Of a DNA stretch of 64,000 bases, positions 15,040 to 57,612 are shown piece by piece. Both the position numbers and the translations under genes were made by a program. The notes below the pieces were generated by a model. It worked only from the letters and a program-made list of their open reading frames with translations. It ran no database searches and was not told where the DNA came from. Position 1 is the stretch's first letter; every line of letters begins with the position of its first letter. The DNA comes from Chiloscyllium plagiosum (taxonomy: Eukaryota), in assembly GCF_004010195.1 (NCBI RefSeq), contig NC_057719.1:34027981-34091980 (forward strand). The letters run 5' to 3'.

Positions 15040-15790
15040 GGGTTAGATTCTATTTTTTCCTCTTGTTTACTTTTTTCCCCTTTATCCCTACACTAGTGCT
15101 TATTTCTCCCTCGCAGCACCTGTTCTGTGTGTGTAAGTGCAGGGACTCAGTGAAGACACCACGTGTAAAAGACTTTACTCAATACTTCCATCACCAGGAA
15201 AACACCCATGTTGCGAGGGAACCAGTAACAAGCAAAGCCCGATAAGGGCAATGCTTTCATGAAAAATAAAGTGAAGGGAGAGTGAATGGATTACATCAAA
15301 ATAGAATTTCTCCCTAAAGGCATCAAGAGCATGTTCCCTCTCCAGTCAGATCCGGGTTCGAACATAACTACGGAAGAGGGGCAGGCAATTGGCAGAAATG
15401 ATGCCTTCCATGACCCGCTGCCTGAACCTGTTTAGTGCCAGCCTGGCCAGGTCCAGGAGCAGACCCAGGAGGAAATCCTCTGACCTGCCCGCATCCCTCC
15501 ACACCAACAGCGTTGGGCTTAACTGTAACCAAAATCAGCCCAAAAGGTTCTTCAGGTAATTGAAAAAGGAATGCAAACACCCGCGTCCAATGTACACATG
15601 ATCCACAGAACCCACAATGCCACAGAATAAATGGATGGGCTGGGAGTCTGTGAACCGCCGCAATTTGCAGAGGGGACTGCTGCATGCAAACCCTCCACCC
15701 GGATCCCCGAGGGAAAGAGGGCGGATTCCAGCATAGATCATCCGCTAATGGGGATCCCCACCACCGGGGGTAAATAGGCTTGCCAAGATG
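15040..15790 (-). mobile_element. Tx1-clade (L1-like) retrotransposon, ORF2 C-terminus and 3' UTR
   Basis: PSWQAYLP...IYAGI.PLSLGD.GWRV...RRFTDSQP..LFCG.V.SVDHVYI..G.L.S.FNYLKNLL matches the Tx1 ORF2 C-terminal Cys/His region. Confidence 0.75.
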
Positions 15791-15884
15791 GAAAAACAAT
15801 GACTGCAGATGCTGGAAACCAGATTCTGGATCAGTGGTGCGGGAAGAGCACAGCAGTTCAGGCAGCATCCGAGGACAGGCAAAA

Positions 15885-15915
15885 TCGACGTTTCGGGCAA
15901 AAGCCCTTCATCAGG
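15885..15915 (-). ncRNA. Minimal type I hammerhead ribozyme (type A), intact core
   Basis: Minus strand CUGAUGA-A-GGGC-UUUU-GCCC-GAAA-CGUC; predicted cleavage after GUC, between 15887 and 15886. Confidence 0.8.
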
Positions 15916-16183
15916 AATAAAGGCAGAGAGCCTGAAGCATGGAGAGATAAGCTAGAGGAGGGTGAGGAAATGACCTGGGAGTTGCAATGAGAGAGAGACT
16001 CCCTGAGATTCTTGTAGAGAGAGGAGGAAAACTTCTTCAAGGCAGGCATCCTTGCAAGAGGATTCGCAGTAGGGTTAAAATCAACGAGGTAAAAACAATG
16101 ACTGCAGATGCTGGAAACCAGATTCTGGATCAGTGGTGCTGGAACAGCACAGCAGTTCAGGCACCATCCGAGGACGGGCAAAA

Positions 16184-16214
16184 TCGACGTTTCGGGCAAA
16201 AGCCCTCCATCAGG
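16184..16214 (-). ncRNA. Minimal hammerhead (type A) with CUGAUGG variant core
   Basis: Minus strand ctgatggagggcttttgcccgaaacgtc, one substitution relative to the 15885 copy. Confidence 0.65.
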
Positions 16215-16391
16215 AATAAAGGCAGAGAGCCTGAAGCATGGAGAGAGGAAATGACCTGGGAGTTGCAATGAGAGAGAGACTCCCTGAGATTCTTGTAGAG
16301 AGAGGAGGAAAACGTCTTCAAGGCAGGCATCCTTGCAAGAGGATTCGCAGTAGGGTTAAAATCAACGAGGTAAAAACAATGACTGCAGATG

Positions 16392-16690
16392 ATCCATCTA
16401 GGTTTCATTTGGACCTGGGCACTTGTTGGCTTTAATGCCTTCTAGAATACACAACACTGCTTCCCTCCTTGTGATGGCTCGAGTAATTAAAGATCTATCC
16501 CTAATCTTAACATCCATCTTGTCCCTCTCCTCAGTGAATACCAATGTAAAGTACTCGTTAAGAATCTCGCCCATTTTCTCTGACACCACTTTCCTCCTTT
16601 GTCCTTTCCCTCGTTACCCTCTTGCTTCTTATATTTGAACGAAAAGCTTTGCGATTTTCCTTTACCCTTTTTGCTAAAGTTATCTCATGA
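16392..16690 (-). mobile_element. CR1 ORF2 internal fragment
   Basis: ORF 16398-16589 EKMGEILNEYF..VFTEE....IKANKCPGP. Confidence 0.8.
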
Positions 16691-19424: not shown

Positions 19425-19620
19425 TGTGGCTGTAGTAGCGGGTTTGTTTCAGGACATGGTTGAAGAGCTTCAGGGATGAGGAAATGACCTGGGAGTTGCA
19501 GTGGGAGAGAGACTCCCTGAGATTCTTGTAGAGAGAGGAGGAAAACTTCTTCAAGGCAGGCATCCTTGCAAGAGGATTCGCAGTAAGGTTAAAATCAACG
19601 AGTAAAAACAATGACTGCAG
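19425..19620 (-). mobile_element. Penelope terminal-repeat end plus start of the PLE ORF
   Basis: Same sequence as the tandem unit but extends further: MPALKKFSSSLYKNLRESLSHCNSQVISSSLKLFNHVLKQTRYYSH. Confidence 0.75.
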
Positions 19621-22058: not shown

Positions 22059-22527
22059 AGCTGAAAATGTGTTGCTGGAAAAGCGCAGCAGGTCAGGCAG
22101 CATCCAAGGAGCAGGAGAATCGACGTTTCGGGCAGGAGCCCTTCTTCAGGAATGAGGAAAGTGTGCCCAGCAGGCTAAGATAAAAGGTAGGGAGGAGGGA
22201 CTTGGGGGAGGGGCGTTGGAAATGCGATAGCTGGAAGGAGGTTCTTCTTCCTGACCTCTCCACCCCCACCCCGACCCCGACTCCGGCCTATCACCCTCAT
22301 CTTAACCTCCTTCCAGCTATCGCATTTCCAACGCTCCTCCCCCGAGTCCCTCCTCCCTACCTTTTATCTTAGCCTGCTGGGCACACTTTCCTCATTCCTG
22401 AAGAAAGGCTCCTGCCCAAAACGTCGATTCTCCTGCTCCTTGGATGCTGCCTGACCTGCTGCCCTTTTCCAGCAACACATTTTCAGCTCTGATCTCCAGC
22501 ATCTGCAGTCCTCACTTTCTCCTCCTA
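22059..22527. mobile_element. Fold-back PLE insertion with 185-bp inverted arms, two type-B hammerheads and a 12-bp TSD
   Basis: Arms 22059-22243 and 22304-22488 are near-perfect reverse complements; TSD catacctttaaa at 22048-22059 and 22528-22539. Confidence 0.9.
22120..22150 (-). ncRNA. Minimal hammerhead (type B), intact core
   Basis: Minus strand CUGAAGA-A-GGGC-UCCU-GCCC-GAAA-CGUC. Confidence 0.78.
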
Positions 22528-50661: not shown

Positions 50662-51372
50662 TCCCTCCTTGCAGGCAACATCCTAGTAAATCTCCTCTAA
50701 GCCCTTTGAAAAGCTTTCATATCCTTCCTATAATGTGGTGACAAGGTCTGTACGCAATGCTCCAAATGTGGCCACACCAGAGTTTTGTACAGCTGCAGCA
50801 TGATCTCATGGTTCTGAAATTCAATCCCTCTACCAATAAAAGCTAACATACCATATGCCTTCTTAACAACCCTATCAATTTGGGTGGCAATTTTTAAGGA
50901 TCTATGTACCTGGACACCGAGATCTCTCTTCTCATCTGTACAACCATGAATTATATCATTAGCCCAGTACTCTACATTCCTGTTACTCCTTCCAAAGTAA
51001 ATCACCTCACACTTTTCTGCATTAACCTCCATTTGCCAAATCTCAGCCCTGCTCTCCAGCTTATTTACGTCTCTCTGTAGCCTACAACATCCTTTGTCAC
51101 TATCTACAACTCTACTGACCTTAGTGTCATCTGCAAATTTACTAACCCATCCTTCTATGCCCTCATCTAGGTAATTTATATAAATGACAAAAAACAGTGG
51201 CCCCAAAACAGATCATTGAGGAACACCACTTGTAACTGATCTCCAGGATAAATATTTCCCATCAGCCACCACCTTCTGTCTTCTTTCAGCTAGCCAATCT
51301 TTGATCCAACCCGCGAACACAACCTCAATCCAATGCTTGTGTATTTTGTGCAATAGCCTACATGAGGAACCT

Positions 51373-52129
51373 GATTCTGGATTAGTGGTGCTGGTAGAGC
51401 ACAGCAGTTCAGGCAGCATCCAAGGAGCAGTAAAATCGATGTTTCGGGCAAAAGCCCTTCATCAGGAATAAAGGCAGAGAGCCTGATGCATGGAGAGATA
51501 AGCTCGAGGAGGGTGGGGGTGGGGAGAAAGTAGCATAGAGTACAATAGGTGAGTGGGGGAGGGGATGAAGGTGATAGGTTAGGGAGGAGAGGATGGAGTG
51601 GATAGGTGGAAAAGGAGATAGGCAGGTAGGACAAGTCCGGACAAGTCATGGGGACAGTGCTGAGCTGGAAGTTTGGAACTAGGGTGAGGTGGGGGAAGGG
51701 GAAATGAGGAAACTGTTGAAGTCCACATTGATGTCCTGGGGTTGAAGTGTTCCGAGGCGGAAGATGAGGCGTTTTTTCCTCCAGGCTCTGGTGGTGAGGG
51801 AGCAGCGGTGAAGGAGGCCCAGGACCTCCATGTCCTCGCAGAGTGGGAGGGGGAATTGAAATGTTCGGCCACGGGGCGGTGTGGTTGATTGGTGCGGGTG
51901 TCCCGGAGATGTTCCCTAAAGCGGTCAGCTAGGAGGCGCTCAGTCTCCCCAATGTAAAGGAGACCGCATCGGGAGCAACGGATACAATAAATGATATTAG
52001 TGGATGTGCAGGTCAAACTTTGATGGATGTGGAAGACTCCTTTAGGGCCTTGGATGGAGGTGAGGGAGGAGGTGTGGGTGCAGGTTTTACAGTTCCTGCG
52101 GTGGCAGGGGGAGGTGCCAGGATGGTAGG
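51373..52129 (-). mobile_element. Penelope-like element 3' part: GIY-YIG endonuclease and terminal repeat with type-A hammerhead
   Basis: ORF 51579-52016 TCTSTNIIYCIRCSRCGLLYIGETERLLADRFREH...VAEHFN; hammerhead at 51436-51465; TSD atgaggaacct/atggggaacct. Confidence 0.9.
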
Positions 52130-52199
52130 ATGGGGAACCTTATCAAACATCTTACTGAAATCTATATGTACCACATCAACCACTTTACCCTCATCCACC

Positions 52200-54574: not shown

Positions 54575-57500
54575 GGATTTCTGGGCTGTTCAATCAGTCT
54601 ATAATTACCTGGAGTATCCCTGCTACCCTTCTTAAACAAGGGGACAACATTAGCAATTCTCCAGTCCTCCGGGACCTCAAGGATGCTGTAAAGATATCTG
54701 TTAAAGCCCCAGCTATTTCCTGTCTCACTTCCCTCAGTAACCTGGGATAGATCCCAACCGGACCTGGGGAATTGCCTACCTTAATGCTTTTTAGAACACC
54801 CAAAACTTCCTCCCTCCTTATGCCGACTTGACCTAGAGTACTCAAAGATCTATCCCTAACCTCAACATCGGTCATGTCCCTCTCCTCGGTGAATACTGAT
54901 GCAAAATACTGGTTCAGAATCTCACCCATTTTTTCTGACTCCATGCATAACTTTCCTCCTTTGTCCTGAGTGGGCCACCCCTTTCTCTAGTCACGCTCTT
55001 GTTCCTTTATATGAAAAAAAGGCTTTGGAATTTTCCTTAACCCTGTGTGCTAAAGAGATCTCATGGCCCCTTTTAGCCCTCTTAATTCCTCATTTCAGAT
55101 TGGTCCTACATTCCAGATATTCTTCCAAAGCTTTGCCTGTCTTCAGTAGCCTGGATCTTATGTATGTATCCTTTTTCCTCTTAGCTGGTCTCACAATTTC
55201 ACCTGCCATCCATGGTTCCCTAACCTTGCCATTTCGATCTCTCATTTTCACAGGAACATACCTCTCCTGCACTCTAATTAATCTCTCTTTAAAAGCCTCT
55301 CAAATATCAAATGTGGATTTACCTTCAAACAGCTGCTCCCAATCTACATTTGCCAGCTCCTGCTGAATTTCGATATAATTGGCCTTCCTCCAGTTAGCAC
55401 TCTTCCTTTAGGACCACTCTTGTCTTTATCCATGAGTATCCTAAAACCTACAGAATTGTGATCACTATTCCCAAAGTAGTCCCCTACTGAAACATCAACC
55501 ACCTGGGCAGGCTCATTTCCTAACACCAGGTCCACTACGGCCTCTTCTCAACGTGGAAAATTTACATATTGCTCGAGAAAACCCTCCTGGATGCTCCTTA
55601 CAAATTCTGCTCCATCTAGACCTCTAACATTAAGTGAATCCCAGTCAATATTGGAAATATCAAAATCTCCTACCACCATCACCCTGTTGCTCCTACATCT
55701 TTCCATGATCTGTTTACATATTTGTACTTCTATCTCACATTTGCTGTTGGGAGGCCTGTAGTACAGCCCCAACATTGTTACTGAGCTCTGAGGCCTGTAG
55801 TGCAGCCCCTATTTCTGAGCTCTGCCCATTTTGCCTCACTGCTCAAGTCTTCCATAGTGCCCTCCTTCAACACAGCTGTGATATTCTCTCTGACCAGTAA
55901 TGCAACTCCTCCACCCCTTTTACCTCCCACTCTATCCTGTCTGAAGCATCGAAGTCCTGGGACATTTAGTTGCCAATCATGCCCTTCCCTCAACCAAGTC
56001 TCAATAATAGCAAAAGCATCATGCTCCCAGATACTAATCCAAGCCCTAAGTTCATCCGCCTTACCTACTATACTTCTTGCATTAAAATAAATGCACCTCA
56101 GACCAGCAGTCCCTTTGCATTCATCATCTGCTCCCTGCCTACTCTTCCCCTTAGTCACGCTGACTTCATTATCTAGTTCCTTCCAGGCTTTAGTTACTGC
56201 TTCCTTACTTCCTCTAACCTCATTTGGCTCCCAACCCCCAAGCACATTAGTTTAAACCCTCCCCAACAATGTTAACAAAAGCGCCCCCAAGGACATTGGT
56301 TCATTTCCAGCCCAGGTAGAGATATCCAACTTGTTAAAGGCCCACCTCCCCCAGATCCGGTCCCAATGTGCCAAAAATCTCAAGCTACACATTCATCCTG
56401 AATATTCTGTCATTCCTACTCTGACTAGCGCGTGACACTGGTAGCAGCAATCCTGAGATTACTACCTCTGAGGTCCTACTTTTTAACTTGGCTCTTAACT
56501 CCCTAAATTCTGCTTCTAGGACCTCATCCCGTTTTTTTACCTACATCATTTGTGCCTATATGCACCATGACAACTGCTGTTCATCCTCTCCCTTGAGAAT
56601 ATTCTGCAGCTGATCTGCGACTTCCCTGATCCGTGTACCTGGGAGGCAATAAACTGCTCAGAAGTCTCATTTTTGTCCACAGAACCACCTATCTAATCCC
56701 CTTCCAGTTGAATTCCTTATGAATACAGCCCTTCCACTCTTTTTCCTGCCTTCTGTACAGCAGAGCCAGCCAAGGTGCCTGGCTACTGCTGCCTTCCCCT
56801 GGTGAGCCAACTCCCCCAACAGTATCCAAAACGGTACACCTGTTTTGGAGGGAGATGACCGCAGGGGGACACCTGCACTGCCTTCCTGCTCTTTCCCAGC
56901 CTTTTGGTCACCCATTCCCTTTCTCCCTCAGAAATCCTAATTTGTGGTGTGACCAATTCACTAAACGTGCTATCCGCAACCCCCTCAGCATCGTGTATGC
57001 TCCCAAGTGAGTCCATCCGCTGCTCCAGAGCCGTCATGCAGTCTAACAAGAGCTGCAGCTGGACACACTTCCTGCATGTGAAGGAGTCAGGAACATCAGT
57101 TGTGTCCCTGAGCCATCACATTGAGCAAGAGGAGCATAACACGGGTCTGAGATCTCCTGCCATTTTTAACCTTAAATTTAACTTAAGTCTTAGCTTAGGT
57201 AAATGAAAAAGGAAAGGTTTTACCAAAGCACCGATAAAACAATAAAAAAGGGAAATAGAAAAACGTTACCTGATTAACTCACCACAGAGTCCTTTTTCTT
57301 GGTTAGAGGAGGGCGGGTGGGAGACACTACACATGCAGTGTCTCAGGTTCAGCCGCTACCCAAATAAAATAGTTTCACTCACCTTCCCAGCAGCCCACTG
57401 GTTCTCGCTCCCACCTTTCGACAAATGGAGGGCCCGATGCCTGAGGTAAGTTATCTTAAATGGTTTCACTCACCTTCCCAACATCCCTTCAGTCCTCACT

Positions 57501-57612
57501 CTCACCTCCCGACAAATGAAGGCTCCGACGCCTGAGGTAAACTTTTTTAAACAGTTTCACTCACCTTCCCAGCAACCCTTTGGTCCTCACTCTTACCTCT
57601 CGTCAAATGGAG
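54575..57612 (-). mobile_element. CR1 5' half: 5' UTR, ORF1 remnant, APE endonuclease; ends near the NYRP motif
   Basis: ORF 55778-56245 RCIYFNARSI..KADELRAWI..W..D..AI.ETWL; GLYYRPPN, VVGDF, LDLVLGNE..SDHNSV; ORF1-like CRKCVQLQLLLD.MTALE near 57030-57075. Confidence 0.92.
57372..57610 (-). repeat. 91-bp tandem monomers (about 2.6 copies) at the CR1 5' end
   Basis: gtttcactcaccttccc at 57372, 57463 and 57554. Confidence 0.85.

Follow-up and report, generated by a model that had tools for sequence, protein, structure and literature searches.

At positions 15792-16391 of the window (the 64,000-nucleotide stretch of Chiloscyllium plagiosum DNA analysed here) lies an array of 600 bases, with its sense on the minus strand, that consists of two head-to-tail units of a Penelope-like element (PLE) and 20 bp of a third. 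The periods are 299 bases (15792-16090) and 281 bases (16091-16371), followed by the 20 bp at 16372-16391, and in transcript order the segments run 16391-16247, 16246-16091, 16090-15964 and 15963-15792 (Table 1). Each unit is composed of the 3' part of the PLE terminal repeat, which carries a minimal hammerhead, the leader and the first 86 nt (28.7 codons) of the ORF. Aligned over 301 bases, the two units, designated U (upstream) and D (downstream), show 6 substitutions, and one 18-nt indel sets them apart. The coordinates and the alignment agree with the head-to-tail units of 299 and 281 bp described on the minus strand by the initial annotation. Its statement that every unit is a repeat with a hammerhead followed by an ORF start holds for the general anatomy, but no ORF piece follows the last repeat and the array contains only two hammerheads. 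The match of the repeat (E 2e-137) is not due to chance. Tandem Repeats Finder did not call the array, including with the parameters of a 2026 retrozyme preprint. The 18-nt difference is in frame, and minus-strand readthrough of the junction and hammerhead gives frames of 63 codons (15861-16049) and 57 codons (16160-16330). A homolog spanning the junction of the 63-aa peptide was found among none of three candidates of near length, and one of 120 longer ones matched, in the ORF half only. With no homolog across the junction, we rejected a new protein of 63 or 57 aa, and the fact that the peptide search gave no second locus of the array junction may be taken as weak evidence. An exact 28-nt junction pattern had 0 matches in metagenome contigs, a collection unsuited to this question.

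Table 1. Coordinates of the array, its hammerheads and its relatives in the window
Feature	Position	Strand	Basis or remark
Last 20 nt of terminal repeat, 5' leader and PLE ORF codons 1-29 (ATG 16330); the array's 5'-most segment	16247..16391	-	96.5% identical to 19478-19620
Terminal repeat (pLTR), 3' part, upstream copy U	16091..16246	-	90% identical to 51368-51498
5' leader and PLE ORF codons 1-29 (ATG 16049)	15964..16090	-	tblastn, P0001 residues 1-27 at 96%
Terminal repeat, 3' part, downstream copy D; ends at the family's usual insertion end	15792..15963	-	Loose contig ends
Junction from ORF to repeat in unit D, where 2 nt overlap exactly (15964-15963), plus the 18 nt missing in unit U	15946..15966	-	
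Minimal hammerhead U, A9G variant; core 16213-16189 (CUGAUGG), GUC site 16186/16185	16186..16213	-	Consensus core as in PMC3088659
Minimal hammerhead D, consensus core 15914-15890 (CUGAUGA), GUC site 15887/15886	15887..15914	-	Features as in PMC4209133
Lone ORF-start fragment (46 codons) of this family, without terminal repeat	19426..19620	-	5' end at most 3 nt from the array's 5' end
5'-truncated parent copy: CX4CxxC linker, GIY-YIG, terminal repeat with decayed hammerhead	51368..52139	-	

The source of these units can be traced inside the window. The array's ORF start recurs at 19474-19620 with 96.6% identity, and the 46-codon ORF start matches residues 1-46 of P0001, an uncharacterised protein of Chiloscyllium punctatum, at 91% identity, the next named relatives coming from other carpet sharks. 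P0001 matches the N-terminus of P0025 (E 1e-13, 29% over 137 aa), a protein of 882 aa with a C-terminal GIY-YIG at 782-823 that itself matches positions 51715-52118 of the window; RT motifs were seen by eye in P0025, for which Pfam gave no RT match. In the truncated parent copy, 51368-51518 is 91.4% identical to the array's terminal repeat, 51702-52139 encodes GIY-YIG (Pfam PF01541, E 2.7e-5), and a C-X4-C-XX-C linker is present in the frame 51579-52139, upstream of GIY-YIG; a CX2-5CxxC linker is described as a mark of Neptune and Nematis (PMC8557442). Based on the link between P0001 and P0025, on this linker and on the same repeat at 91%, the array consists wholly of parts of one EN+ Penelope-like family, of Neptune/Nematis type. 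The comparisons of ORF start, repeat and GIY-YIG thus bear out the PLE origin first proposed for the units, and the identities and the Pfam match do the same for the longer relatives placed in the window (an ORF start at about 19425-19620, and GIY-YIG with the repeat at about 51373-52129). The 3' end of the 19426-19620 fragment falls in an A/C-rich stretch at ORF +138, which recalls the internal start site of the Anolis element.

The hammerhead core pattern occurs 4 times in the window, whereas 200 base-shuffled windows contain it 0.025 times on average and never more than once. The two GUC sites of the array are 299 nt apart, as expected from the 299-nt monomer (15887-16185) originally delimited between them. 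The consensus minimal-hammerhead core (C3-A9, G12-A14, A15.1-U16.1, H17, extra base, G10.1-C11.1) is found in copy D alone, together with an extra A between 9 and 10.1, a 4-bp helix II and an ACGU palindrome, and copy U departs from it by a G at position 9. In the sections of PMC3088659 that we drew on, A9 belongs to the required core and no passage on A9G was found. The CUGAUGG variant that had been assigned to the second core is present, but it lies in the upstream core in transcript order, and the inactivity of this copy is not certain: under another numbering, an A stays beside helix II and the G counts as an insertion. Helix I has two adjacent Watson-Crick pairs, a mismatch and one further pair. 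In the ensemble fold of the dimer, the probability of helix II is 0.83-0.99, that of helix I at most 0.015 and that of an inter-hammerhead helix III 0.0, the last two values being a weak test, as such motifs cleave poorly in vitro; minimal PLE hammerheads are described as poor cleavers in vitro and as protein-assisted in Anolis (PMC4209133, PMC11167929). The array motifs share with the minimal PLE hammerheads described in PMC4209133 the core boxes, the extra base 9/10.1, the G10.1-C11.1 pair, the palindromic 15.2-16.2 and the lack of a helix III as monomer. The Schistosoma motifs in that description have 4-5 bp, whereas here helix II has 4 bp, helix I is weaker and the upstream copy is A9G. 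Rfam gave 0 matches at gathering in the window and, in 15700-16500, 4 chance-level matches, none of them a hammerhead; this says nothing against the motif, because minimal motifs fall outside the Rfam models. In the double-hammerhead geometry of a cis dimer, each core would cut the site of its partner. Hammerhead dimer cleavage is reportedly the subject of a 2017 paper by Lunse et al.

To place the array's ends, reads and contigs were mapped on 15200-16110 (the left flank and one unit). Of the 24 listed runs, 20 contain part of the stretch, none of these being recorded as RNA, and 4 were used: the raw RNA run X22, the RNA-like contig set X15, and two sets of DNA contigs, X1 from organism A and X9 from organism B, a related species. 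Among the 18 rows listed of 919, 204 (X1), 298 (X9) and 39 (X15) contigs run into unrelated flanks at 15792, with an agreement of about 0.4, and 203, 227 and 59 contigs, respectively, have loose ends at 15918. As contigs leave the element at these two places, 15792 is the usual 3' end of the family and 15918, four bases upstream of the hammerhead core, its usual 5' end. Five copies of sister families in the window also stop at the place equivalent to 15792, and the array's 3' end is ordinary for the family. Neither array end lies at a cleavage site, including the 5' end at 16391, which is not at a GUC site.

The flanks inform on the age of the insertion. Flank depth in X1 is single-copy, at 9-11, and one contig (15702-15817) reaches 26 letters into the element, the bridge threshold being 31. 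In X9 an orthologous contig of 583 nt matches the left flank over 15438-15787 (14 differences, 6 gaps) and its next 227 nt are unlike the element, so that the site in organism B is likely, although not proven, to be empty at the array position. The divergence between the units is 2%, versus 2.5-3.9% between the species in the flank, which would fit an insertion after the species split. The five alleles private to U each account for less than 4% of the family depth, and the D allele at 15841 is absent from 99.5% of the family depth in X1; the differences between the two units look private and later. The split of private substitutions (5 in U, 1 in D) is not significant (p 0.22). The same 5 nt stand at 15786-15790 and at 16387-16391, possibly a target-site duplication that overlaps the element's 5' end. 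If adjoined, the flanks 15786-15791 and 16392-16399 form a perfect 14-bp palindrome with 7-bp arms, which is matched by 0.3% of 20000 random positions of the window; this would be either a palindromic target or a 5' junction with an inverted copy of target DNA. On the right, an internal LINE fragment (16411-16689, 73% to 54760-55065), which we take to be CR1-like, ends 20 nt from the array's 5' junction. Its continuation was not found within the window, and the insertion may have been accompanied by a target deletion. A viral origin of the flanks was considered and rejected, as they hold no notable open frame.

The junctions carry most of the information on how the array was built. Those of D (15963/15964) and U (16246/16247) have the same ORF-side break and differ on the repeat side by 18 nt, so that the shared breakpoint with re-entry 18 nt apart, as first annotated, is confirmed by the junction alignment. 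The D junction shows a 2-nt exact overlap inside an imperfect 6-7-nt match, and the U junction an overlap of 2 nt. When all deletions of 10-30 nt possible in unit D are counted, 52 of 4546 (1.1%) have an end at the junction, as do 9 of 348 (2.6%) of those with at least 2 nt of microhomology; this flat count may understate chance, the junction lying in a pyrimidine-rich tract. The shared ORF-side break favours template switching over a later deletion, because a random deletion would match it in 1-3% of cases. Elsewhere in the family, all 15 head-to-tail joints listed of 153 connect the leader or ORF start to the terminal repeat, and they recur in both species. Their donor ends fall at -36 to -38 from the ATG (6 joints), at +29 to +43 (6), at +18 (1) and at +84 to +86 (2), and 8 of these 15 re-enter at 15917-15918. 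With short sides all below 30 letters, these joints are no more than suggestive. A third joint, seen in X1 between 15917 and 15966 (depth 111, one contig), leaves the ORF at most 2 nt from the array's break and corresponds to a unit of about 253 nt; its short side is 26 letters versus a caution limit of 30, and local similarity of the ORF break to the core-adjacent bases could drive the match. A joint at 15964 in X9 was discounted, because the ORF of the reference ends at this base and 11 letters resembling ORF sequence separate the two sides. The 18-nt skip of the 281-type junction is not among the 15 joints listed of 153, the weakest of which has a depth of about 48 versus the single-copy 9-11; this junction therefore probably has fewer than about 5 copies in X1, if it is listed as a joint at all. 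As to the 299-type junction, it runs collinear with the reference, so that the contig output yields no count for it. The donor clusters at -36 to -38 and at +29 to +43 may also be a map of the family's internal start sites.

Based on these results, there is about an even chance that the array is a single, now inert insertion of one Penelope-like family that involved two template switches. Reverse transcription would start at the family's usual 3' end and give a first cDNA of 15792 to 15963; the enzyme would then move to codon 29 of the ORF, about 86 nt from its start, and copy via the leader and repeat to 16246, and a second switch to the same ORF site would be followed by a stop at 16391. The hammerheads would be passengers of the terminal repeat. 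From the double-hammerhead model, the A9G core would have to cut the downstream site and so form the 3' end of the monomer, and a 299-nt RNA would be released poorly, except where an intact core is provided by a different transcript. The segment order, the usual 3' end, the shared ORF break, the short overlaps and the near-identical units support the two-switch reading, and among these the shared break and the usual 3' end also support the alternative already offered by the initial annotation, namely repeated RT template jumps to one ORF-side site. PLE copies are described as being, in the typical case, partial tandems whose tail reaches into the ORF (PMC8557442), and the purified PLE enzyme as initiating reverse transcription at an internal position of the RNA, 111-118 nt from the start of the ORF, without requiring ribozyme cleavage (PMC11167929). 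Template jumping is described for the R2 enzyme (PMC8857657) and is absent among the PLE enzyme results in the sections of PMC11167929 drawn on here. Two observations speak against +86 as a start site: the 19426-19620 fragment continues to +138, and 12 of the 15 joints listed of 153 have their donor ends in the -36 to -38 or the +29 to +43 cluster. It also counts against the two-switch reading that an 18-nt difference with 2-nt microhomology is as expected of a plain deletion, and that two units with only 20 nt more are explained naturally by a local duplication.

Such a duplication, in which an internally deleted PLE copy with a single junction and a 20-nt terminal redundancy was doubled in place via this direct repeat, 18 nt being lost afterwards from one of the units, is an unlikely origin that nonetheless deserves serious weight, since the array is exactly two units plus the 20-nt direct repeat, the D and U junctions have the short overlaps given above, PLE copies are described as often carrying microhomology-mediated deletions (PMC3846280), the two units have the same alleles at the listed family-polymorphic positions and the split of private substitutions fits an equal age. 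It would require the 18-nt deletion to start at the old junction, which the flat count puts at the 1-3% given above, and it is further weakened by the third joint elsewhere with nearly the same ORF-side break. We consider it highly improbable that the array was instead built stepwise, by tail-bearing copies that inserted one after another, in independent events, into the terminal repeat of the element itself. The PLE enzyme, assayed on its own ORF-pLTR junction DNA, is described as cutting there (PMC11167929), which would be in favour of self-insertion, but the same source gives it a preference for AT-rich sites and the array junctions lie in a C/T-rich tract; moreover, the flank lacks the part of the repeat that precedes each junction, and the units share all the listed family-polymorphic alleles.

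Another reading, which we regard as rather improbable, is that the array belongs to a dispersed non-autonomous mini-PLE (a non-LTR retrozyme) that the parent's enzyme mobilised in trans, with tandem or circular RNA as the template; that the array locus itself yields a self-cleaved 299-nt circle, a sub-case of this reading, seems very remote. Unit size and tandem hammerheads match the published description (PMC7229834), in which coral retrozyme variants are set apart by a 20-nt indel, and the unit keeps the usual start point and the ORF start, the region that the PLE enzyme is described as needing on its template (PMC11167929). Such repeats have also been reported in one chondrichthyan with a mean of 363 bp (10.64898/2026.07.22.740005). 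Against it stand the A9G of the upstream core, the weak helix I and the absent inter-hammerhead helix III, the array's 5' end away from a GUC site and the lack of an 18-nt skip among the 15 joints listed of 153. The circular monomer, predicted to be 52% paired, folds at -69.1 versus -63.2 +/- 4.4 kcal/mol for 150 dinucleotide shuffles (z -1.3), so that it is not the highly self-paired molecule that would favour a retrozyme. In X15 the ORF-start bin amounts to 0.7% of the hammerhead bin, versus 2.1-2.4% in the DNA runs (summed contig depth, a poor measure), a weak sign against an abundant monomer, as small circles may be lost in library making. The repeat family is covered by X15 contigs, whereas depth is absent from most bins of the unique flank; among the pieces listed, none crosses a junction of the array. 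In the raw RNA run X22, 0 of 8.3 million records were placed on 15200-16110, which is no test of expression. Overall, the retrozyme reading (a non-autonomous element with a 299-nt circle) is so far not supported, and the candidate shark retrozyme of the initial annotation gained no positive evidence, with one core A9G, a monomer that is not unusually self-paired, ends off the cleavage sites and 8 of 9 Xenopus elements uncleaved in the published test of such dimers.

The comparison with published systems places the array between two descriptions: it resembles a PLE partial-tandem insertion in its behaviour, with the outline of a non-LTR retrozyme. As in the partial-tandem copies with pLTR and extension into the ORF that are a feature of EN+ PLEs, and as described for PLE partial tandems (PMC8557442; PMC3846280; PMC11167929), it has head-to-tail 5'-truncated copies, a hammerhead in the terminal repeat, an extension into the ORF start and junction microhomology. 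Unlike them, its three segments are each below 300 nt and carry no RT or endonuclease sequence, it extends about 125 nt past the usual end rather than by the 30-40-nt tail described, and it has no inverted 5' copy. With the animal non-LTR retrozymes as described (PMC7229834; 10.64898/2026.07.22.740005), it shares a tandem arrangement of units near 300 nt, a single type I hammerhead motif per unit and an origin from the PLE terminal repeat, its units of 299 and 281 bp falling in the range of about 150-450 bp of these elements. It differs from them in a hammerhead that is minimal rather than canonical, in one mutated core, in having two units only and in a unit that carries ORF codons 1-29 with a visible junction and is known here from the sequence of one locus. 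The 2026 preprint defines an active element by a complete hammerhead in at least two consecutive units, which the A9G of U breaks here, although the preprint's own tolerance at position 9 may differ. It describes PLE-derived tandem hammerhead repeats in 20 of 31 vertebrates, with its one chondrichthyan included, and cleavage in 1 of 9 Xenopus dimers, the other 8 remaining uncleaved (10.64898/2026.07.22.740005); according to this source, PLE-derived tandem hammerhead repeats are already known from a cartilaginous fish. A literature search under retrozyme in shark, or Penelope in bamboo shark, gave no paper on the array.

If the array is a one-off scar, it would mean little beyond a clean example of PLE tandem formation, and its shared ORF-side break would be a testable pointer to a second internal RT start site in a Neptune-type element. 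A more ambitious reading, which we hold to be doubtful, is that of a young non-autonomous shark mini-Penelope that arose from template switches to a fixed ORF-start site, with several loci, forms of 299, 281 and about 253 nt sharing one ORF-side end, and copying from tandem or circular RNA; its unit would contain exactly the enzyme's start signal, the hammerhead and the first 86 nt of the ORF. If true, this would be a base-exact record of a retrozyme arising from a PLE. A multi-copy family with circles would give the step from PLE to retrozyme at base resolution, a step that the 2026 preprint, in the sections drawn on here, infers from phylogeny only. The window also holds about ten more stubs of sister repeats. 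A separate tandem of 91-bp units at 57367-57612 (2.7 copies, 80% alike) is devoid of the hammerhead core pattern, and at 22059-22523 two sister-family terminal repeats stand head to head (185 bp, 97% inverted) in a fold-back form.
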